From NCBI GenBank assembly GCA_016867375.1, contig VGJQ01000003.1, positions 1-47,532 on the forward strand: DNA of 47,532 nucleotides, given 5' to 3'. A program made the position numbers and the translations under genes. Each line of letters begins with the position of its first letter. The stretch's first letter is position 1. The DNA is from Candidatus Kaiserbacteria bacterium. Its GTDB lineage: Bacteria; Patescibacteriota; Minisyncoccia; Phycocordibacterales; UBA2100. Shown here in pieces: positions 9,463 through 41,156 of this stretch. The notes beneath the pieces are model-generated. The model saw only the letters and a list, made by a program, of their open reading frames with translations. It did no database searches and was not told where the DNA came from.

Positions 9463-10131
9463 ATGGGGAAGCGGGGACCAAAACCAAAAAAGATACTCTC
9501 AGAAGAATGGTCTTCTCACCTTGCATATGCGATAGGACTACTTGCATCCGATGGATGCTTGTCTGCCCCGTCTCACGGATATTTGATTGATCTGACATCA
9601 AAAGATAGGGAACAGCTTGAAAATTTTATAACCTGTCTCGGTGTGCCGTTCAAGATTACAAGAAAATTAGGAGGAAACGGAAAAGGGTACTTACGCGTAC
9701 AGTTCAAGAATATTACCTTCTATACTTTCCTAATCTCTGTGGGATTGACCCCAGCAAAGTCAAAGACAATCGGCGCCTTGAATATTCCCGACGCATATTT
9801 CTTTGATTTTTTGCGTGGACTCTTCGATGGCGATGGAAGTACATACTCATATTGGGATAAAAGATGGCGTTCGAGCTTTATGTTCTATCTTACTTTTGTG
9901 TCAGCGAGCCCTCTATTCATCAACTGGCTTCGAGAGAATATAGCAAGACTTTCCGGTGCGAGAGGTCATATTTCGGGTGCCAAAAGAGGGGTTCTTTATC
10001 AGCTTCGATATGCAAAAAAAGATGCTCTCGTGATCTTGAAGAAAATGTACAAAAAGAAAGAAGTTGTTTGCTTGCGGCGCAAAAGATTGAAAATAGAAGA
10101 AATGTTGCGTATAGTGGGGGAGTCATTGTAG
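9463..10131 (+). CDS. free-standing double-motif LAGLIDADG homing endonuclease
   Basis: Two motifs, LAYAIGLLASDGCL and FLRGLFDGDGS. GC is visibly lower than in rplS. It is not embedded in any host gene. Confidence 0.8.
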   Translation: MGKRGPKPKKILSEEWSSHLAYAIGLLASDGCLSAPSHGYLIDLTSKDREQLENFITCLGVPFKITRKLGGNGKGYLRVQFKNITFYTFLISVGLTPAKSKTIGALNIPDAYFFDFLRGLFDGDGSTYSYWDKRWRSSFMFYLTFVSASPLFINWLRENIARLSGARGHISGAKRGVLYQLRYAKKDALVILKKMYKKKEVVCLRRKRLKIEEMLRIVGESL

Positions 10132-10162: not shown

Positions 10163-10244
10163 GCGCAGGTGGCGGAACTGGTATACGCGTACGTTTGAGG
10201 GGCGTATGGAGCAATCCTTGGGGGTTCAAGTCCCCCCCTGCGCA
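10163..10244 (+). tRNA. tRNA-Leu (anticodon GAG), class II with long variable arm
   Basis: Acceptor gcgcagg/cctgcgc, anticodon stem tacgt/gcgta with loop ttgaggg, 13-nt variable arm, T-arm ggggg-ttcaagt-ccccc. Confidence 0.85.
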
Positions 10245-10253
10245 CAAAATGCC

Positions 10254-20499: not shown

Positions 20500-20573
20500 G
20501 GGCTCTACAAGGCAGGGCAAACGCATTAAAAATATGCCTTGAAATCACAAGATATTTTCAATGATGCATTACA

Positions 20574-20602
20574 GGGATTTTTCTTTGGTGAAATGGTATA
20601 CT
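20574..20602 (+). promoter_or_regulatory. extended -10 promoter (TGGTATACT) within a 24-nt repeat
   Basis: Same 24-mer as 20047-20070. The -10 ends 6 nt before the ATG at 20609. Confidence 0.5.
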
Positions 20603-20608
20603 AGCTGC

Positions 20609-21016
20609 ATGGGACAAGGACTGGCTTTGACGCAGACACAACAAGACGAACTTCGAAAGCTCGGGACCGTTTTGTGCTATCTGCATGGTTCTGTTGCCAC
20701 TGGTAAGGCGGGGCGGGAGAGCGATGTTGATATCGCGGTACTCTTCGATCGTGCGCCGACGGATTTGGTGGGTACCACGACGGCCGTTGTCCGCGCACTG
20801 CAAGGTTTTGTGCCCGAGCGTGAGATGGATGTGGCGATCCTCAATCAAGCAACGCCGCTCTTGATGCAAACGGTCGCAGTCCATGGCAAGCTTCTTTTTG
20901 AACGATCGATCGGCGACGGACTTTTATTCCAGATCCGTGCAATGCATGAATACGAATCGTCGCGGCACATCGTCCGCATCGGACGTCGCCTTGCTCTCGC
21001 ACGTGCTGGCCTATGA
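20609..21016 (+). CDS. mntA: MNT-type nucleotidyltransferase antitoxin
   Basis: LHGSVATGKAGRESDVDIAVL motif. 4-nt overlap with the downstream HepT gene. Confidence 0.8.
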   Translation: MGQGLALTQTQQDELRKLGTVLCYLHGSVATGKAGRESDVDIAVLFDRAPTDLVGTTTAVVRALQGFVPEREMDVAILNQATPLLMQTVAVHGKLLFERSIGDGLLFQIRAMHEYESSRHIVRIGRRLALARAGL

Positions 21017-21432
21017 CTGACCTCGCACAAGAACTCATCGCCGAAAAGATTACAAAATGCGCCGGGGCGCTCGCGGATCTCAAGCGCTATCGAGAAGTCG
21101 GTACGCTTGAATACTTGCGCGCCACCCCCGATATATATTTTGCAGTATGTTATCGTTTTCTCACCGCCATCGAATCACTGTTTGATCTCGGACAGTTCAC
21201 CCTTGCCGATGTGGGCGTGCGCGCCGAGAGTCAGCGCGAGGTCCCGGTATTGCTCGCCAAACACACTATCATCACGGACGATCTCGCAGATCGATTTGTT
21301 CGGATGTACGGATTCCGCAATCGACTTGCGCACGGGTACGACTCCTTGAGCGATGAGAAGGTCGCTGAATACCTTGCAAAGCATCTGGACGACATTGAGT
21401 CACTGCTGACGGTTTTTCAAAAAGGTATGTAG
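21013..21432 (+). CDS. hepT: HepT (DUF86/HEPN) RNase toxin
   Basis: FRNRLAHGY matches the RNxxxHxY HEPN motif. Confidence 0.8.
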   Translation: MTDLAQELIAEKITKCAGALADLKRYREVGTLEYLRATPDIYFAVCYRFLTAIESLFDLGQFTLADVGVRAESQREVPVLLAKHTIITDDLADRFVRMYGFRNRLAHGYDSLSDEKVAEYLAKHLDDIESLLTVFQKGM

Positions 21433-31931: not shown

Positions 31932-33425
31932 ATGGCTGAAGTATCAATGGAAAAGATCATATCCCTCTGCAAACGCCGCGGATTCATATTTCAGGGGTCC
32001 GAAATATATGGCGGCCTTACCGGTACCTGGGACTATGGTCCGTACGGCATTGAGCTCAAGAACAACATCAAGAATCTTTGGTGGAGGATGTTTGTCCAAG
32101 GCCGCGACGACATGGTGGGTCTTGATGCGGCGATCTTGATGAATCCGCGCGCATGGGAAGCGAGTGGGCATGTGAGCGGCTTTTCTGATCCGCTCGTGGA
32201 TTGTAAAAAATGCGGGACTCGGCAACGAGCGGACGTTCTTATGGAGGATAAAAAGAGTTTGTTCCAAGAAAAAGTGAATGAGTATATGAACGAAGACGTT
32301 ACATATTCAAGGTCTAAAAAGACAGCTTTTATAGAATCATCTGGCATTCCTTACGAAAGAACAGATGTCGCACGTAAAGCCATTACAGAATATATTGGTC
32401 CGCTGGCTCAGCGTTTCCTAAACGAACATATTAATTGTCCAGCGTGTAATTCTCGGGCATGGGGTGAGCCACATAAATTCAATATGATGTTTAAAACATC
32501 TATTGGGGCCATTGATGATGGAAGTTCAATTTCATACCTTCGTCCAGAAACCGCAGGCGGCATCTTCGTCAATTTCAAAAACGTCGTCGATTCTGTACAT
32601 CCTAAGATGCCGTTTGGCATCGGGCAGATCGGCAAGGCATTTCGCAACGAGATCGCCCCGCGCGACTTTATCTTCCGTGTACGTGAGCTTGAGCAGATGG
32701 AGATCGAGTATTTCGTGAAGCCTTCGGATTGGGAGGGGAGTTTTGAGGAGTGGCGCCAGGAAGTCCATCATTTCATCGACGCGGTCGGCATCGACGAAAA
32801 AGCCGTCCATGAGCTGGAGGTGGCGCCCGAAGATCGCGCACACTACAGCAAGCGCACGATCGATTTCGAGTTCGATTTTCCGTTTGGCCGCAAAGAGCTT
32901 TTTGGCCTCGCATACCGCACCGACTTCGACCTCTCCGCACATGCCGGGGCATCGGGTGTGAAGCTTGAGATGCAGGGCGAGGAGGGGGAGAAGCCGTACA
33001 CGCCGCATGTTATCGAGCCGTCGTTTGGCGTCGATCGTACGGTGCTCGCAGTGCTTGCAAGCGTCTACACCGAAGACGAGCTTGGTGGCGAACCACGCAC
33101 CTATCTCAAGTTCAACAAAGCCGTGGCCCCCATCAAAGCCGCGGTCTTTCCACTCCTCAAAAACAAGCCCGAGCTCGTCGCCAAAGCGCGCGAGGTCTAC
33201 ACGATGCTCAAGCAGGAGGTGCCGCAGATCATGTGGGACGACAACGGCAACATCGGCAAGCGCTACCGCCGCCAAGACGAGATTGGCACGCCGGTCTGTA
33301 TCACGATCGACTTTGATACTTTGGGTGAGACTGCAGACTTTAAAGACACCGTCACCGTCCGCGACCGCGATACCGGAGAGCAACAGCGGGTGAAAATAGA
33401 GGATTTGACAAATATTATTAATTAG
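31932..33425 (+). CDS. glyQS: glycyl-tRNA synthetase (alpha2 type)
   Basis: RRGFIFQGSEIYGG, YLRPETAGGIFVNF, GIGQIGKAFRNEI class II motifs. The start is uncertain (31899, 31932 or 31947). Confidence 0.9.
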   Translation: MAEVSMEKIISLCKRRGFIFQGSEIYGGLTGTWDYGPYGIELKNNIKNLWWRMFVQGRDDMVGLDAAILMNPRAWEASGHVSGFSDPLVDCKKCGTRQRADVLMEDKKSLFQEKVNEYMNEDVTYSRSKKTAFIESSGIPYERTDVARKAITEYIGPLAQRFLNEHINCPACNSRAWGEPHKFNMMFKTSIGAIDDGSSISYLRPETAGGIFVNFKNVVDSVHPKMPFGIGQIGKAFRNEIAPRDFIFRVRELEQMEIEYFVKPSDWEGSFEEWRQEVHHFIDAVGIDEKAVHELEVAPEDRAHYSKRTIDFEFDFPFGRKELFGLAYRTDFDLSAHAGASGVKLEMQGEEGEKPYTPHVIEPSFGVDRTVLAVLASVYTEDELGGEPRTYLKFNKAVAPIKAAVFPLLKNKPELVAKAREVYTMLKQEVPQIMWDDNGNIGKRYRRQDEIGTPVCITIDFDTLGETADFKDTVTVRDRDTGEQQRVKIEDLTNIIN

Positions 33426-33471
33426 TTACTCTTTTGGCCAGCATCTCTGGCATCAACACAGGAGGTTATTA

Positions 33472-33654
33472 ATGGCGAATAATGATGCCAAAGGAGTTGC
33501 GCTCGTCGGTTATTGCTCGGACCATAGGGATGATCCCATCTGTGTTCGCCCAATTACCAATGCGGAGATTTTTGTTGCCCTTGGAGGTGTCCTATTAATA
33601 TTGCTCACCGCAATTGTTTCCGCGTACCCCCGTAAGCGTAAGCGATTCAGGTAA
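33472..33654 (+). CDS. small membrane-anchored protein
   Basis: 60-aa ORF with a C-terminal TM segment plus a basic tail. AT-rich. Confidence 0.4.
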   Translation: MANNDAKGVALVGYCSDHRDDPICVRPITNAEIFVALGGVLLILLTAIVSAYPRKRKRFR

Positions 33655-33661
33655 AGAAACG

Positions 33662-33697
33662 CCCTGCGCCACAATTCGGCGCGGGGTGAATTTTTGT
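33662..33697 (+). terminator. intrinsic terminator T1
   Basis: ccctgcgcc-acaattc-ggcgcgggg followed by tgaatttttgt. It closely resembles T2 at 34789-34827. Confidence 0.7.
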
Positions 33698-33735
33698 ACT
33701 TGCATACATTTGATTTATACGTATACTATATACTT

Positions 33736-33966
33736 ATGAATACCGTCACCTTTACGAGCACTATTTCCCCGAGTTTGATCGCGTGGCTGGATGCTGAGGC
33801 CAAGAAAGCGAAGCGCACGCGACGCGACATGCTTGAAGAAGCTTTGATCGCTTTTAAACGGGTAAAAATGCGTGAAGGGTTTGTGCGCGCTGCAAAAGAC
33901 GCAGATATTGTCGAGATGGCGGAGTGGGGTATGGATGAATATTCCAAGATGATCAATCGTCTATGA
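33736..33966 (+). CDS. ribbon-helix-helix (CopG-like) antitoxin
   Basis: VTFTSTISPSLIAWLDAEAKKAKRTRRDMLEEAL is an RHH pattern. ATGA overlap with mazF. Confidence 0.7.
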   Translation: MNTVTFTSTISPSLIAWLDAEAKKAKRTRRDMLEEALIAFKRVKMREGFVRAAKDADIVEMAEWGMDEYSKMINRL

Positions 33967-34301
33967 AAGTGCGCCAGGGGGAGATTTGGTACGCGCAATT
34001 GAATCCTGTAAAAGGAAGCGAACAGGGCGGTCGAAGGCCTGTGGTGATTATTTCAGGCAACACTATGAACGAAACACTTCCCGTCGTGATCGTTTGTTCG
34101 ATGTCGACCAAAATAAAAGAATATCCGGGATGTGTGATATTGCGAGCAAATAAAGGGACCGGTCTAAAACAAGATTCCGAGGTTGTCACGTTCCAAGTGC
34201 GCACGCTCGCGCATGCACGCCTAACCAAGAAAGTGGGCGTGGTCACAAGCGAAGAATTCCGTGCAATCCTACAAGGCTTGCAGGAAGTGTTGGTTCTATA
34301 A
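33963..34301 (+). CDS. mazF: MazF/PemK-family endoribonuclease toxin
   Basis: [28 protein letters not shown] is a hallmark PemK N-terminus. Confidence 0.85.
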
Positions 34302-34304
34302 TTT

Positions 34305-34479
34305 CCAAGTCGAGATCGGCACGCCCGTGTGCATCACGATCGACTTTGATACGCTCGGCGACCCTTCGATAGGCTCAGGGCAGGGAACCGGCCGCAAAGA
34401 CACGGTCACCGTCCGCAATCGCGATACGGGGGAGCAAAAAAGGGTAAGAGTGGGGGATTTGACTTCCTATCTCAAATAG
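34305..34479 (+). pseudogene. orphan diverged copy of the glyQS 3' end
   Basis: It translates to ..[44 protein letters not shown]. Compare the glyQS C-terminus [49 protein letters not shown]. Confidence 0.85.
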
Positions 34480-34492
34480 ATTACCAATAGCC

Positions 34493-34765
34493 TTGGGAAA
34501 ATCCCGTAGCAGGAGAAAGAAGATGTCTAAGGTGATTATCGATCTCGGCTCAAGGCGGCGAGCCAAAATTGGAGATAGGGTTTTGGTTCTCGCAAAAGAA
34601 ACAATCAAGGGCGAAGACAGGGGTAGTTTGCACTTAGGTACCTTCAGAGCGTTCCCCCCAAAAGGGGAGAACAACCCCATAATTCAGCTCGACGACATCA
34701 AAAGATTTCGTCGGGGCAAGCGTGAAATCGTGGGGCATATTCCATTGTCCGGAGAAATCAAATAG
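34493..34765 (+). CDS. hypothetical basic protein
   Basis: 90-aa ORF followed by terminator T2. Confidence 0.4.
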   Translation: MGKSRSRRKKMSKVIIDLGSRRRAKIGDRVLVLAKETIKGEDRGSLHLGTFRAFPPKGENNPIIQLDDIKRFRRGKREIVGHIPLSGEIK

Positions 34766-34788: not shown

Positions 34789-34827
34789 CCCCGCGCCAGA
34801 GCAATCCGGCGCGGGGTGATTTTTTGT
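34789..34827 (+). terminator. intrinsic terminator T2
   Basis: ccccgcgcc-loop-ggcgcgggg followed by tgattttttgt. Confidence 0.7.
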
Positions 34828-34849: not shown

Positions 34850-35917
34850 ATGAAAGAGAGGGAACACACCATCATCACCATCACGACCGGCACTGTCCTC
34901 AAGACGCTCGCGCTCATCATCCTCTGTCTCCTCATTTTCTACTTGCGCGAGATCGTCCTCGACGTACTCACGGCGATCGTCCTTGCCTCAGCTATCGAGC
35001 CGGCAGTCCGTGGTCTGCGGAGGGCCGGATTTCCGCGCATCTTGAGTATCGTGACGGTGTATGTGGGGATGATCACTATGTTTTTTGCGATATTCTATTT
35101 CTTCCTCCCGCTTCTCTTCGAGGACATCACGGCCTTCGTATCTTCCATCCCGACATACATCGAGGCGATCAATCGCAGCGGGGTGCTCGATCGATACACC
35201 GATGTCTTCGGTTCGGCAGCAGTGCCGGGCGCTGCTGCACCCAATTTCTTCGCAAGATTCCAAGAGTTTATGAGTTCGACATTTTTGGGGCAGGCCTTCA
35301 GTAGTGTCGGGGGTATATTCAGCGGCGTATTTTCTCTCGTCATCATTCTTGTCTTCTCATTTTACTTCGCGGTGATTGAGACGGGTGTCGACGACTTTCT
35401 CGAGATCATCATGCCACGACAGTACAAACGCTATGCGCTCGGGCTGTGGAAGCGCGTCCAGCACAAGATCGGTCTGTGGATGCAGGGTCAGGTGCTGCTG
35501 GCACTCATTATGGGTGTCCTCGTCTTTCTCGGTCTCACGATACTCGGCGTGCCCAATGCACTCTTGCTTGCGGTCTTGGCGGCCGTTTTCGAAGTCATCC
35601 CGGTATTTGGTCCGGCGCTCGCGGCGATCCCTGCGATTGCGATTGCGTTTACCTACGGTGGTTTGGCGCTCGGTCTGATGACTGTCGCGCTGTATGTCAT
35701 TGCGCAGCAGTTTGAGAATCACCTGATCTACCCGCTTGTGGTGACGCGCGTGGTAGGTGTGCCGCCCTTGCTCGTGATCCTGGCGCTCATCGTCGGGGCG
35801 CAGCTCGCCGGCTTCTTGGGCATCATCCTTTCGGTCCCGATCGCGGCATCCATTCAGGAGTTTATCCGCGATATCAAGCATGACCGTATCCGCCTCGAGA
35901 CCTCATCGGACGCCTGA
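34850..35917 (+). CDS. AI-2E (PerM/UPF0118) family transporter
   Basis: About 8 TM segments, with conserved FEVIPVFGP and QFENHLIYP motifs. Confidence 0.75.
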   Translation: MKEREHTIITITTGTVLKTLALIILCLLIFYLREIVLDVLTAIVLASAIEPAVRGLRRAGFPRILSIVTVYVGMITMFFAIFYFFLPLLFEDITAFVSSIPTYIEAINRSGVLDRYTDVFGSAAVPGAAAPNFFARFQEFMSSTFLGQAFSSVGGIFSGVFSLVIILVFSFYFAVIETGVDDFLEIIMPRQYKRYALGLWKRVQHKIGLWMQGQVLLALIMGVLVFLGLTILGVPNALLLAVLAAVFEVIPVFGPALAAIPAIAIAFTYGGLALGLMTVALYVIAQQFENHLIYPLVVTRVVGVPPLLVILALIVGAQLAGFLGIILSVPIAASIQEFIRDIKHDRIRLETSSDA

Positions 35918-37857: not shown

Positions 37858-38115
37858 ATGCCATATATTCCACAGTCAGATCGAACAAAGTTCGACGATG
37901 CTATCACCACACTCAAGCCCGAAAAGGCGGGGGAGCTCAATTACATCATCAGTCGCCTCTGTGCCGACTACATCGCCCGCATGGGCAAGAAATATGCCAC
38001 TCTCAACGAAGTGATGGGCGTCCTCACGTGTGCCGCGTCCGAATTCTACCGCCGCCTTATCGCACCCTACGAAGATGAGAAGATCAAATCAAGCGGGGAT
38101 ATCGCAGGTTACTAA
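37858..38115 (+). CDS. conserved hypothetical 85-aa protein (intact paralog of 40528-40877)
   Basis: MPYIPQSDRTKFDD...LNYIISRLC...EFYRRLIAPYEDEKI. It starts 5 nt after the nudix stop. Confidence 0.6.
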   Translation: MPYIPQSDRTKFDDAITTLKPEKAGELNYIISRLCADYIARMGKKYATLNEVMGVLTCAASEFYRRLIAPYEDEKIKSSGDIAGY

Positions 38116-38208
38116 CTATGACGGTGTATAGGGTTGGAACGAGTTGCCAGCAGGACTTGTATAGGTTACAAAGGGGTTAGTTTTGTTCAAAAAAGAAGGA
38201 ACAAAAGA

Positions 38209-38847
38209 ATGAAAGAGGTGATTCAGAAGGTGGAAGAAGCGGTCCGTGAGTTCATGGCAGTGCAGGATAAGGCCCATGACTGGCATCATATCCATCGGGT
38301 GCGCACAATGGCGTTGCGGATTGCTGCATTTGAGGGAGGCGATACAGAGCTCATCGAACTCGCGGCGCTCGTCCACGATGTCGGCGATTATAAGTTCCAT
38401 GAGAGCAAGGAAGTGGGCGAGCAAGCCGCAGTCGATCTCATGGCACGTTATGGCGTCCCACAGCGGATGGTTGAGAAGGCGGTCGATATTATGCGGCGCG
38501 TGTCATTCAAGGGTCTCGATGTTGCCGACGACATGCCGACACTTGAGGGAAAGATCGTGCAAGACGCGGATCGTCTCGATGCGATTGGCGCGATCGCGAT
38601 CGCGCGCACTTTCACGTATGGCGGCACCAAAGGTCGATCCATGCATGATCCGGATGCTCCGCTCACGATACGTTCTTCCGAAGAATATTTGATAGGAAAC
38701 CGTTCGAGCATTCACCACTTCTTCGACAAACTCTTGCATCTGAAGAATCGACTGCATACGAAGACCGCACGAGAGATCGCGACCGAACGACATACCTTCA
38801 TGGAAGAGTTCATCCGCCGTTTCTTAAGAGAATGGGATGGCAAATAA
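38209..38847 (+). CDS. HD-domain phosphohydrolase
   Basis: HDWHHIHRV ... LVHDVGD ... DADRLDAIGA motifs. Confidence 0.8.
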   Translation: MKEVIQKVEEAVREFMAVQDKAHDWHHIHRVRTMALRIAAFEGGDTELIELAALVHDVGDYKFHESKEVGEQAAVDLMARYGVPQRMVEKAVDIMRRVSFKGLDVADDMPTLEGKIVQDADRLDAIGAIAIARTFTYGGTKGRSMHDPDAPLTIRSSEEYLIGNRSSIHHFFDKLLHLKNRLHTKTAREIATERHTFMEEFIRRFLREWDGK

Positions 38848-38880
38848 TAGAAACAGCCCGGCGTTCATACGTCGGGCTGT

Positions 38881-38931
38881 TCACTTTTGTTTCTTGGGTG
38901 CTTGTGGCGCGTTGCGGTCGAGACAGACGCG
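38881..38931 (-). pseudogene. orphan 3' end of a paralog of the 87-aa gene at 41673-41936
   Basis: The minus strand reads RVCLDRNAPQAPKKQK*, versus ACLDRNAPMRPKKQK* at the end of 41673-41936. It shares the adjacent terminator sequence. Confidence 0.75.
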
Positions 38932-38989
38932 TAAGGGCGCGCGCGTTTCTAACAAACCAGCTCTTCAGATATTTGTGTGGACCGCGCGG

Positions 38990-39418
38990 TCAATCGCTTT
39001 TCTTGAGATACTCCACGATGTGCCGCAGGTAATCTCGGTATTGGCCGATCTCGTGCGATATGTCGTCCACCATGCGAACGATATCCACTTTGCCGTAGCG
39101 ATGTACGACGAGATTGCGCAATCCGACGGAAGGCGCAATGCGTCGCGCGAAGTTGTCCGGCAACATACCGCGCTCACCGATCGTTGTGAATGTGCTTTGG
39201 TAATCATCGGGCGCAGGAAGATTCGAAGATGCGATGATGTGCGTGTTGATGTCGATGGCGCAGTCGACGATGAGTTGAAAGAGCCGCTCCACGGTGTGCA
39301 ATTTGAAATTGTCATGCACAATCTCGCGCGTGCCAAGGGCGAGTGTCGGTTCGAGTTCGGCGAGATATGCCTGCATGTCGGCCATCTTCGTTTCCACAAG
39401 ATTTTTGTCGAACGTCAT
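38990..39418 (-). CDS. hepT: HepT (DUF86/HEPN) RNase toxin
   Basis: GLRNLVVHRY RNxxxHxY motif. Confidence 0.8.
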   Translation of the reverse strand: MTFDKNLVETKMADMQAYLAELEPTLALGTREIVHDNFKLHTVERLFQLIVDCAIDINTHIIASSNLPAPDDYQSTFTTIGERGMLPDNFARRIAPSVGLRNLVVHRYGKVDIVRMVDDISHEIGQYRDYLRHIVEYLKKSD

Positions 39419-39825
39419 ACGGCGGGTGCGGCGAGGAACGCGTCAAGCGACGCGCGGCGCAAATCGCGCAACGGTTTTGTCTCCACGAATCGCTTGAAAG
39501 CATACATACCAAACCGAGCGAAAACATGCGGTTCGCGCTCGTAAAGAAGTATCCCTTCTGAGGCGTGTTTTTGCAAGAGGGGGGATGCGCTGCGTATGTC
39601 GACGACGTCCGTTTCTATACCGATGCGTTCTCCGATTTCGTACGCCATTTCCGCCAAATCGAGTGGCGAGAGCGGGCAATCGGCTTGCACAGCGATATCC
39701 GCATCGCTTCCCGCGTGTGTGCGCCCTGTCGCCTGCGAGCCGAATAACACAGCGAAAGATACCCCGTATCGGGGCGCGATCGTCTCTATTGCCGCGCGCG
39801 CCTCACTGATCTCAATCTGCTTCAT
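39415..39825 (-). CDS. mntA: MNT-type nucleotidyltransferase antitoxin
   Basis: LFGSQATGRTHAGSDADIAV. 4-nt overlap with hepT. The start is taken at MKQIEIS rather than the track start at 39912. Confidence 0.8.
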   Translation of the reverse strand: MKQIEISEARAAIETIAPRYGVSFAVLFGSQATGRTHAGSDADIAVQADCPLSPLDLAEMAYEIGERIGIETDVVDIRSASPLLQKHASEGILLYEREPHVFARFGMYAFKRFVETKPLRDLRRASLDAFLAAPAV

Positions 39826-39905
39826 GTAGACATTATACCATATCAACGGAAAAGTTATGCCGAACCAAAAGTTGACTTTTTCGTCAACAAAAGTACACTT
39901 TTGGT

Positions 39906-40187
39906 ATGGCAAAGATCACTGTCTCAGATTCCAATATTGGCCTCAAAGAGTTGCGCGACAATGTCGATACATACATCGCGGCCGTAAAAAAGGGTAAGAA
40001 GTTTACCGTCTACCGACATTCAAAGCCGGTGTTTGCCATCGTGCCTCCCGAGGAGGTCGAATACGACCTCGATGAGCTCGACGGTCCGGGATGGAAGACG
40101 TTGATTGATTTTACAAAGATTCGCAAGGGCGGGGTCCCGGCCGAAGAGGTGCTTGCTGCTATCGACCGTGTGTATGGACAGAGTTGA
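39906..40187 (+). CDS. Phd/YefM-like antitoxin
   Basis: LKELRDNVDTYIAAVKKGKKFTVYRHSKPVFAIVPPEE pattern. It overlaps the downstream toxin gene. Confidence 0.65.
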   Translation: MAKITVSDSNIGLKELRDNVDTYIAAVKKGKKFTVYRHSKPVFAIVPPEEVEYDLDELDGPGWKTLIDFTKIRKGGVPAEEVLAAIDRVYGQS

Positions 40188-40407
40188 AAAATTCATACGC
40201 AAAGTCGGTAAAGATCGTGCGCCCTCCGTCAGAGCGATTATCGCGAGGATAGTTGTAAACGATCTTGCAGGTTTGGATGTCCGAAAACTCAAAGGTAAGG
40301 ATTTTGAATATCGTATTCGTGTCGGCCGCATCCGCATCAAATTTGTTCGTAGTGCCTTGGGTAATAATGAGGTCATCGACATCACTTTCCGCGATAACAA
40401 CACGTAA
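40174..40407 (+). CDS. RelE/ParE-superfamily toxin
   Basis: 77 aa with LKGKDFEYRIRVGRIRIKF, matching the RelE-like L.G....yRiRvGdyRi motif. Confidence 0.65.
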   Translation: MDRVEKFIRKVGKDRAPSVRAIIARIVVNDLAGLDVRKLKGKDFEYRIRVGRIRIKFVRSALGNNEVIDITFRDNNT

Positions 40408-40412
40408 GGGTA

Positions 40413-40455
40413 TTAAAAGGCGACGCCTTTTAGGCAAAAAGGCGTCGCCTTTTTC
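40413..40455 (+). terminator. long inverted repeat / terminator
   Basis: aaaaggcgacgcctttt-aggc-aaaaaggcgtcgccttttt. Confidence 0.6.
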
Positions 40456-40527
40456 TCGCCCCCCTAACCCCTCTCGACTGCCCGACGCAAACATGCGTCG
40501 TGTCGCCTTTTAATATATAATCCTCAC

Positions 40528-40877
40528 ATGCCCTATATCCCACAGTCAGATCGTACAAAGTTCGACGATGCCATCACGGCGCTCAAGCCCGAAAAGACGG
40601 GGGAGCTCAATTACGTCATCAGTCGCCTCTGTGCCGACTACATCGCCCGTACGGGCACAGGGTACGCCAATCTCAACGAGGTGATGGGCGTCCTCACGTG
40701 TGCGTCGGTTGAGTTTTAGGTCCCGTTCATAAATAACTGCAACACAAAATGAACGGGCCCATAAGTGTAGTCCACAAATAACGGGTACGTTAATTTGTGG
40801 ACGAGCCCTTACCGCCGCGTGGTGGCCCCGTACGAAGATACAAAGATCGCATCCGATGGCGATATTAAGGGATATTG
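40528..40877 (+). pseudogene. paralog of 37858-38115 disrupted by a 91-bp insertion
   Basis: Collinear with the intact paralog up to ..SVEF, then TAG from the insertion. The remainder, YRRVVAPYEDTKIASDGDIKGY*, resumes after the element. Confidence 0.85.
40719..40809. mobile_element. 91-bp MITE-like element with TA target-site duplication
   Basis: TA at 40717-40718 and 40810-40811. Removing the element plus one TA restores gag ttt tac cgc cgc = EFYRR as in the paralog. Imperfect terminal inverted repeats and two internal hairpins (40722-40757 and 40770-40802). Confidence 0.8.
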
Positions 40878-40934
40878 AGATGATGCGGACTCTTGCATTT
40901 GTGCAAAAGATATAGTGTGATACAGTTTCGTCAT

Positions 40935-41156
40935 ATGGAACGAGAGTACACGGCAGTAATAAAAAAAGAGGGTTCATGGTACGTCGCGTGGCTTGAAGAG
41001 GTGCCAGGCGTCAATACGCAAGGTCGGACGCTCAAAGAAGTGCGCGAGAACTTGAAAGATGCGGCGATGTTGCTGTTTGAGGTCAATCGCAAGATCTCTC
41101 GCGCCCATGGCCGCGGAGTCATACACGAGCCGTTGCGCATCACGGTGGCGGCATGA
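40935..41156 (+). CDS. hicB: HicB-like antitoxin
   Basis: YTAVIKKEGSWYVAWLEEVPGVNTQGRTLKEVRENLKDA pattern. ATGA overlap with hicA. Confidence 0.7.
   Translation: MEREYTAVIKKEGSWYVAWLEEVPGVNTQGRTLKEVRENLKDAAMLLFEVNRKISRAHGRGVIHEPLRITVAA

Follow-up and report, generated by a model that had tools for sequence, protein, structure and literature searches.

A MazF-type toxin–antitoxin cassette between two diverged 3′ ends of glyQS in a Parcubacteria genome

We analyzed a stretch of 47,532 nucleotides from Candidatus Kaiserbacteria bacterium (contig VGJQ01000003.1, assembly GCA_016867375.1; hereafter the window), in which a ribbon-helix-helix (RHH) antitoxin gene and a MazF toxin gene stand between the end of glyQS, the gene for glycine–tRNA ligase (GlyRS), and a second glyQS end. 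An earlier reading of the bare sequence had described this arrangement, and all the features that it quoted were located. The glyQS gene is intact and is completed by the nearer end (tail A), and the second 3′ fragment (tail B) lies at the far end of the insert, which is the configuration of an e14/icd-type element. The overall architecture is a tail, a small open reading frame (ORF) and a terminator, then RHH–MazF, and then again a tail, a small ORF and a terminator. We lean modestly to the view that the C-terminal part of the essential glyQS was displaced by an imported block through homology-anchored recombination; the direction and the route of this event are what we infer from the comparisons below.

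The two glyQS ends

Tails A and B are about 78% identical at the nucleotide level overall, with matches at 48/57 and 62/84 positions in two ungapped blocks. The loop between these blocks in tail B has exactly 21 extra nucleotides relative to tail A, as given by the difference in offset. The estimate made by eye in the sequence-only reading, roughly 80 percent identity with a 21-nt insertion, was therefore accurate. The repeat spans 154 nt in tail A and 175 nt in tail B. The longest exact word common to both is 20 nt and is internal (33300–33319), and at the left edge of the repeat only CCAAG is common to both tails.

The divergence between the tails is of the same order as that between tails of different lineages (dS, substitutions per synonymous site, ~1.06; dN/dS, the ratio of nonsynonymous to synonymous rates, 0.14). 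As a natural variant, the extra loop of tail B (DPSIGSGQG) is found in the relatives P0004, P0020 and P0069, and the loop type of each tail occurs in functional GlyRS of relatives. The residues conserved in at least 95% of 119 relatives were compared with both tails. Tail A deviates at none of them, and tail B only at one, a D→V change in the first codon after the junction, where D is invariant among the 119. With no other departure, tail B must have belonged to a working glyQS until recently. From the dS, the dN/dS and the natural loop variants, both tails evolved as functional genes in separate lineages. We regard them as two long-separated functional alleles, and not as a decayed local duplicate, in agreement with the earlier claim that the two ends differ in evolutionary origin.

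In the orphan, homology to glyQS restarts at 34305 (CCAAG) and continues in frame for 57 codons to a stop at 34477–34479. Tail B matches positions 50–92 of the HGTP_anticodon profile (E = 1.2e-7), the C-terminal half of the domain. It has no in-frame start at the homologous position, and a scan predicted no promoter for it. The junction reads TAATTT followed by CCAAGT. The orphan had been placed four nucleotides after the mazF stop; its closeness is real, but the actual gap is 3 nt.

The features of the locus are as follows.

31932..33425, + strand: glyQS (glycine–tRNA ligase), intact functional gene; Pfam tRNA-synt_2b and HGTP_anticodon, 65–81% identity to Parcubacteria GlyRS.
33234..33277, + strand: 44-nt glyQS block coding WDDNGNIGKRYRRQD, proposed left recombination anchor; nucleotide-identical in the window, L001 and L003, one difference in L026 (relatives introduced below).
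33272..33425, + strand: tail A, the 3′ end with which glyQS now closes (short loop, ETADF), proposed to be cassette-borne; direct repeat with 34305–34479.
33472..33654, + strand: ORF60, a small hydrophobic ORFan that may not be a real gene; from the ORF list, no homologue, no Pfam match, absent from L026.
33660..33697, + strand: terminator A, a stem of 11 pairs (9 of them G-C) and a T-tract; from the terminator scan, homologous to terminator B.
33698..33735, + strand: putative promoter/operator region of the cassette; a block conserved in the window, L026 and L027, beginning at the T-tract.
33736..33966, + strand: RHH (CopG/EndoAI-type) antitoxin, 76 aa; family profile matches, homologues upstream of MazF in ~40 loci.
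33963..34301, + strand: MazF/PemK toxin, 112 aa; PF02452 at E = 1.7e-29, full length.
34302..34304, + strand: junction TTT between the MazF stop and the orphan; read from the sequence.
34305..34479, + strand: tail B, the orphan glyQS 3′ end (57 codons and stop; long loop); HGTP_anticodon at E = 1.2e-7.
34523..34765, + strand: ORF80, an ORFan downstream of tail B that may not be a real gene; no homologue, no Pfam match.
34789..34827, + strand: terminator B, CCCCGCGCC...GGCGCGGGG and a T-tract, then the AI-2E promoter region; from repeat comparison and motif search.
34850..35917, + strand: AI-2E family transporter, the ancestral downstream neighbor of glyQS; Pfam E = 7.2e-57, directly after glyQS in L001 and L002.

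The host is a Parcubacteria genome of the Candidate Phyla Radiation (CPR), and the GlyRS of the window is 65–81% identical to proteins named Sungbacteria, Kaiserbacteria, Parcubacteria and Paceibacterota. Its gene yields a product of 497 aa (492 aa as called elsewhere), of which tail A encodes the final 51 codons. The gene order in the window is IleRS, RecO, a DUF11 surface protein, glyQS, the features of the insert, the AI-2E family transporter and metG.

Tail B's extra loop was also seen elsewhere. As a pattern with three degenerate positions, CCTTCGATAGGCTCAGGGCAGG (window 34363–34384) matches the glyQS loop of the relative L002 (6402–6423) exactly, and outside this loop tail B and the L002 tail are only 70–76% identical. 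In another frame the loop reads PFDRLRAG, and the window has no further copy of it. Several Parcubacteria GlyRS (P0004, P0020, P0069) could have it in common as a short, conserved insertion sequence.

An independent contig and the loci of relatives

The arrangement is not an assembly artefact or a fold-back. An independent contig from the Logan collection (L025, SRR16108666, 8163 bp) contains the full arrangement of the window with one mismatch in 8136 nt, and is thus 99.99% identical over the locus. Logan contigs are assembled at k = 31. A misjoin induced by the repeat is unlikely, since the longest word common to both tails, 20 nt, is too short at the usual k-mer sizes. Exact look-ups of the MazF and AI-2E proteins each returned only two Logan contigs of 5–10 kb, all of them cassette-bearing; L025 is the one presented here, and the other is reported as a similar place.

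In two relatives whose GlyRS has the same insertion domain as that of the window (L001 and L002), the order is DUF11–glyQS–AI-2E–metG, with glyQS directly before AI-2E at gaps of 76 and 35 nt. This adjacency indicates an ancestral state with neither the cassette nor the small ORFs, and it bears out the earlier description of the cassette as an insertion.

Two short contigs contain the cassette in other surroundings. L026 (1932 bp) has a glyQS end, a terminator, RHH and MazF, followed directly by TTTTTTTGGTCGT and AI-2E, with no orphan; at the place that corresponds to the junction of the window it reads TAGTTTTTTTGG. The sequence after its MazF stop is homologous to the terminator B T-tract and AI-2E promoter region of the window, the T-tract with GTCGT of terminator B matching right after the stop. 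L027 (1489 bp) has a terminator, RHH and MazF, and then immediately another orphan glyQS end, which closes with INFQTLEDDTATVRDRDTGKQERVAIGGLTSTIK and a stop. This orphan is of the short-loop TLEDD type, as in other functional GlyRS. Its first third deviates from invariant residues at nine positions, and the rest is intact. The orphans of the window and of L027 both begin ...AAGT.

The RHH–MazF cassette

The toxin matches the PemK_toxin family (PF02452) with residues 4–110 over profile positions 1–109 of 109, and the antitoxin and MazF genes overlap by ATGA. As a single sequence the antitoxin matches Pfam RHH_1 at E = 0.024, below the Pfam cut-off. A profile built from 18 homologues found upstream of MazF relatives matches CopG (2cpg, E = 4.8e-5) and the EndoAI antitoxin (4me7_E, E = 2.4e-4). 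EndoAI is the RHH antitoxin of the Bacillus MazF homologue EndoA. The pairing of this antitoxin with MazF recurs in ~40 loci. By domain content and gene order, we assign the cassette to the type II toxin–antitoxin (TA) modules with a MazF/PemK toxin and an RHH antitoxin, similar to EndoAI–EndoA, and the pair is presumably active. The closest characterized relatives, EndoAI–EndoA (YdcD–YdcE) and MazEF, share with it a PemK/MazF-fold toxin after a small RHH antitoxin, overlapping genes and a palindrome in the promoter region; they are distant from the window pair. Upstream of the cassette we found TTGCAT (33700), the palindrome TATACGTATA (33716–33725) and TATACT (33722–33727), the last 8 nt before the ATG. 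We infer that these may serve as promoter and operator.

The conserved unit runs exactly from the terminator T-tract to the MazF stop, with 77–80% nucleotide identity across the window, L026 and L027, and its flanks differ among the three. The window MazF is 89% identical to that of L026 and 82% to that of L027. In one genome per species, a scan gave MazF relatives of 45–58% identity only, in Patescibacteria and Bacteroidota; they mostly have the same antitoxin upstream, and none lies near glyQS. Outside L026 and L027, the closest homologues from genomes and metagenomes together are likewise 45–58% identical, and none of ~68 such loci has an adjacent glyQS fragment. The association with glyQS is confined to the close family of the cassette. 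We found no relatives on viral contigs, and an Rfam scan of the window returned only tRNAs.

Base composition was considered as a marker of foreignness and dropped, since the GC content at third codon positions (GC3) of both the cassette (0.51–0.55) and tail A (0.56) falls inside the genome range. Only the local contrast with the unusually GC3-rich 3′ body of glyQS is suggestive.

Terminators and small ORFs

The features claimed by the earlier reading between the two copies, a membrane ORF of 60 aa, a terminator and RHH–MazF, are all present as ORF60, terminator A, the antitoxin and MazF. Terminators A and B are homologous, with 24/26 identical nucleotides over their ungapped 3′ part and, as read by eye, 33/38 aligned nucleotides plus a 3-nt gap over the whole stem-loop. 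A motif search placed this terminator at only two sites in the window. Because both units end in homologous terminators, the duplicated unit is larger than the coding tail. The tail-to-terminator regions of the two units, which contain ORF60 and ORF80, are unrelated to each other. ORF60 (60 codons) has one hydrophobic helix. Neither ORF60 nor ORF80 (80 codons) has a homologue among 5.8 billion proteins or a Pfam match; both being ORFans, the attempt to trace the donor or the native context through their homologues was dropped.

In L027, the orphan is followed (919–1180) by a membrane ORF of 63 aa and a terminator-like hairpin, the latter read by eye. The layout of tail, small ORF and terminator is that of both window units, with no relation among the small ORFs themselves. 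These lineages may typically have small, quickly evolving ORFs downstream of glyQS.

Which end came with the cassette

Direction was sought in the boundary between gene body and tail. The closest relative of the gene body is L003, a metagenome-assembled genome of Sungbacteria, with 91–93% nucleotide identity at the 5′ end and over codons 401–460. We restricted the boundary comparison with L003 to stretches of identical peptide. Over 33222–33277 (56 nt) the window and L003 have no differences, and from 33278 tail A differs from L003 at 12 of 49 nucleotides, all of the changes synonymous and the peptide the same. Over the first block of 55 nt, tail B has 7 differences from L003 (two of them in the D→V codon) and tail A has 12. 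Tail B is 87% identical to L003 in this block and tail A is 89% identical to the L026 tail. In the corresponding quartet, five of seven informative sites group A with L026 against B with L003, and none groups A with L003. Over the 50 codons that precede the boundary GC3 stands at 0.90; it remains 0.88 over the first 17 of tail B and is 0.65 over the first 17 of tail A. From the L003 differences, the quartet sites and the GC3, the functional gene has a breakpoint where the repeat starts on its left side, with tail B apparently the natural continuation of the gene body. That tail A came with the cassette is somewhat more probable than not, and we put it no higher. The earlier suggestion that one of the ends had arrived with the cassette and replaced the native one stands as the most likely account; its direction, with tail A as the newcomer and tail B as native, has moderate support only.

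A phylogeny of the two ends had been proposed as a check. At the protein level such a comparison was uninformative, as both ends are equally distant from the relatives, and it was the fine-scale synonymous signal that moderately favored tail A as the newcomer. Two other analyses were set aside. The quartet analysis of the second block, used as a test of polarity, supported neither direction. A breakpoint scan against L003 over the final 450 nt gave its best split at 33383, driven by the variable C-terminus and not by the repeat boundary.

Several observations weigh against an imported tail A and its proposed history. The best matches of the two tails among the 119 GlyRS relatives, 37/48 and 37/47, are equally distant, and neither tail's similarity tracks that of the gene body (Spearman ~0). 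Some 50 nt carry the directional signal. Over the second block A and B group together against L003 and L026, the two tails being about equally far from both, and the long loop of tail B is not L003-like. L026 indicates that the cassette with an A-like tail can be stable and apparently vertical, which fits the opposite polarity as well. The composition of the cassette, within the genome range of 0.58 ± 0.06, does not mark it as foreign. We found no donor for the imported block, and the exact look-ups of the MazF and AI-2E proteins recovered no strain variant free of the cassette. Natural competence has been shown in Saccharibacteria (PMC10633639); that of Parcubacteria is an assumption of the proposed route, and spread by double crossover would be drawn from only two orphan-bearing loci.

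In the 44-nt block at 33234–33277, the nearby synonymous sites are saturated. This suggests either strong constraint at the nucleotide level or repeated homogenization by recombination.

A proposed history of the insert

In the displacement that we favor, a piece of ~1.03 kb (~33272/33278 to 34304) from a related Parcubacterium would have brought tail A, ORF60, the terminator and a self-contained RHH–MazF operon with its own promoter. It would have entered the resident glyQS at the 3′ edge of the 44-nt block that is identical across lineages, the left crossover falling within the identical stretch of 44–56 nt. The final 57 codons of the resident gene (tail B), ORF80, terminator B and the AI-2E promoter would have been displaced downstream, leaving tail B 3 nt past the MazF stop, start-less, promoter-less and almost intact. 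The agent would be the homologous recombination of the host, acting on DNA taken up from a relative, with no involvement of an integrase. An identical stretch of 44–56 nt, as an anchor within ~80%-identical sequence, would account for the position of the breakpoint and for both orphans starting just after the anchor.

A purely illegitimate right junction is unlikely to fall near the MazF stop twice, and this favors a history in two steps. In the first, an L026-like donor (glyQS–terminator–RHH–MazF) would have given rise once to a "sandwich" by homology-facilitated illegitimate recombination, the right junction being the illegitimate one. In the second, the sandwich, now with glyQS homology on both sides (the gene body to the left, the orphan to the right), would have entered the glyQS of a relative by double crossover. 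The right crossover would then lie between the old orphan and the recipient's own tail, and the orphan left behind would be a hybrid, old in its 5′ piece and with its 3′ piece newly supplied by the host. L026 would be the state before the sandwich, or else a descendant from which a deletion between T-runs removed the orphan unit. Such a history would leave a conserved junction of MazF stop and orphan, with the 5′ piece of the orphan older and its 3′ piece fresh and host-specific in loop type. This is what is seen: in L027 the 5′ piece shows strong decay, and in the window it has the D→V change. Far more tentatively, the orphan tail could be the right homology arm of a minimal, integrase-less mobile TA cassette, in effect a natural knock-in construct that could pass into glyQS in any related Parcubacterium through a double crossover once its DNA was taken up, with the host tail refreshing the 3′ part of the orphan and the MazF pair penalizing A × B loss. 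The left flank of this construct would, as tentatively, be the ultra-conserved glyQS block together with its own replacement tail.

The polarity may also be the reverse, although we consider this unlikely. In this alternative, glyQS with tail A, ORF60, terminator A and RHH–MazF would be resident and vertically inherited, and the newcomer would be tail B with ORF80 and terminator B. The fragment would come from the glyQS of a cassette-free relative and would be joined through a homology anchor on the right (the T-tract or AI-2E) and an illegitimate join after the MazF stop. L026 looks just like the window minus tail B, ORF80 and the stem of terminator B, since its cassette is followed by TTTTTTTGGTCGT and AI-2E; the first block of tail A is 89% identical to the L026 tail, and the composition of the cassette is unremarkable for the genome. 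However, this polarity leaves unexplained the switch from 0/56 to 12/49 differences relative to L003 at the repeat boundary, as well as the high GC3 and the L003 similarity of the first block of tail B. It would also require that illegitimate joins arose twice, independently and each only a few nucleotides from the MazF stop, once in the window and once in L027.

Site-specific integration is, in our estimate, a distinctly improbable explanation. The insert would be a non-autonomous element of 1 kb, similar to the cis-mobilizable elements (CIMEs), or the remnant of an island, with its integrase acting in trans or lost; the glyQS block would be attB, and the replacement gene end would have been carried in attP, as for e14 in icd. 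It would fit a crossover at the left edge of the repeat that makes tail A wholly of one type and the orphan wholly of the other, a right end at the MazF stop in two lineages whose orphans both begin ...AAGT, and a target within an ultra-conserved block. Precedents are e14 with icd/icdC (PMC13626634) and integrative and conjugative elements (ICEs) in the lysS 3′ end (PMC4701971). Yet neither the 1.03-kb insert nor any sizeable ORF of the 47.5-kb window gave a match to an integrase, a transposase or another recombinase domain, and we found no recombinase in the short L026 and L027 contigs. The boundaries have no short identical att core: the repeat is ~78% identical, with no identical core above 20 nt, and the 20-nt run is internal and not at a boundary. 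Moreover, L026 has the cassette without any att-like duplication, and viral contigs hold no relatives. The likening of the insert to islands that integrate into gene 3′ ends, made in the sequence-only reading, is contradicted by the lack of both the integrase and the att core.

An integron-like or transposon-like element was rejected, as we found no terminal inverted repeats, no attC-like structure and no transposase. A local tandem duplication of the glyQS 3′ end with decay and a separate TA insertion, or a chimeric assembly of two strains, is very improbable: direct repeats do flank the cassette and metagenome assemblies can join strains, but the dS of ~1.06, the dN/dS of 0.14, the natural loop variant in each tail and the unrelated tail-to-terminator regions oppose the former, and the 20-nt longest common word, shorter than typical assembly k-mers, and the 99.99%-identical independent contig oppose the latter.

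Comparison with known systems

In the e14/icd locus of E. coli, the insert supplies a diverged 3′ end and the native fragment is kept as the icdC pseudogene, and recombination between the two ends would give a functional chimeric gene (PMC13626634). The glyQS locus is like e14/icd (and phage 21) in that the gene is intact through an insert-borne 3′ end, with the displaced 3′ fragment at the far end of the insert. However, e14 is ~15 kb in length and has its own integrase and site-specific excision, whereas the glyQS insert is ~1 kb and recombinase-free, holds only a TA operon and an ORFan, and is bounded by repeats of ~78% identity.

In the Rhs, contact-dependent inhibition (CDI) and type VI secretion system (T6SS) loci, homologous recombination is proposed to take place at a conserved anchor upstream, with an illegitimate join at the other end, so that the old 3′ end is shifted downstream (PMC5361080). 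This C-terminal displacement appears to be the closest analogue at the level of process. The shared traits are an upstream anchor, a new 3′ end linked to a toxin/antidote pair, a start-less old end downstream and no integrase, and the breakpoint in glyQS would likewise lie at the 3′ edge of a conserved anchor (33234–33277). In contrast to those loci, where the displaced end is a toxin domain and the retained immunity gene gives a reason for selection, the glyQS end belongs to a tRNA synthetase (the anticodon-binding domain of GlyRS) and the TA operon is separate. The exchanged C-terminus here is not a polymorphic toxin domain with a cognate immunity gene.

ICEs, as well as integrative and mobilizable elements (IMEs), integrate into the 3′ ends of lysS, rpsI, rplL and guaA in streptococci, and CIMEs are their integrase-less derivatives (PMC4701971). 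The glyQS insert resembles them in its target, the 3′ end of a conserved housekeeping gene (aminoacyl-tRNA synthetase genes, through lysS, among them), and in that the gene is preserved. ICEs and IMEs have tyrosine integrases and near-identical direct repeats of 13–17 bp; the glyQS insert has neither.

Other mosaic and toxin–antitoxin loci in the window

The glyQS gene looks like a recombination mosaic independently of its tail. The GlyRS insertion domain (32217–32531, codons ~96–200) has a GC3 of 0.31; the remainder of the gene stands at 0.72 and the genome at 0.58. L003, the closest relative, lacks this domain, although its flanking codons have 91–93% nucleotide identity. In protein, the domain is 62% identical to its counterpart in L002, which is low in GC.

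A second duplication lies downstream. An intact DUF6899 gene (37858..38115, Pfam E = 2.3e-29) is followed, 2670 nt downstream, by a truncated copy of its first ~63 codons (40528–40718). This copy has 86% identity over 191 nt, closes with a stop and is without the 3′ rest. The duplicated stretch is 37858–38048 against 40528–40718, in a region of 37858–41156. Between the copies are an HD-domain protein, a HepT/MNT pair (38990..39912, minus strand) and a Phd/YefM-like antitoxin with an ORF of 100 aa, and a UPF0150/HicB-like ORF comes after the truncated copy. The whole stretch is flanked by metG/NUDIX and TatD, and in L002 these are direct neighbors; contig L025 breaks off within the first copy. 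A duplicate that flanks a TA-rich stretch hints that the process of cassette entry may be general in this genome.

A second pair of MNT nucleotidyltransferase and HepT is at 20561–21432 on the plus strand. With at least four TA-like modules, the window is rich in them for a small CPR genome. A free-standing ORF at 9463–10131, between ribosomal protein L19 and tRNA-Leu (10163–10245), has weak LAGLIDADG-type matches, and of the genes checked it is the lowest in GC (0.42; GC3 0.42). The gene could be homing-endonuclease-like or WhiA-like. The ORF of 159 aa at 2807–3286 matches only the N-terminal P-loop part of PIF1-like helicases (profile positions 2–148 of 223), and may be a truncated helicase gene or one split over neighboring ORFs.

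Discussion

The type of outcome seen here, in which an insert brings the end that completes an essential gene and the native end is left stranded downstream, has been described before. The finding will not surprise a specialist, and its direction and mechanism are inferences from little sequence. What is new is an integrase-less insert of 1 kb with a MazF-type TA module as its only recognizable cargo, with glyQS as the target and a CPR bacterium as the host, and a second lineage (L027) in which the same cassette is followed by an orphan of a different host type.

The locus offers a sequence-level example of how TA modules may enter, and stay in, the very small genomes of CPR/Patescibacteria without integrases or transposons, the module riding on the conserved end of an essential gene. 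Aminoacyl-tRNA synthetase genes in these lineages are recombination mosaics, glyQS having at least three segments of different affinity. Together these loci suggest that recombination on short conserved anchors is a common route of accessory-gene gain in this genome.

Stranded fragments of marker genes such as tail B can be mis-called as genes and, by our reasoning, may inflate duplicate-marker counts in quality estimates. The same stranded tails are useful as natural markers of past recombination. If spread through homology arms is true, genes could flow among naturally competent, streamlined bacteria by a simple route, and possibly a widespread one.

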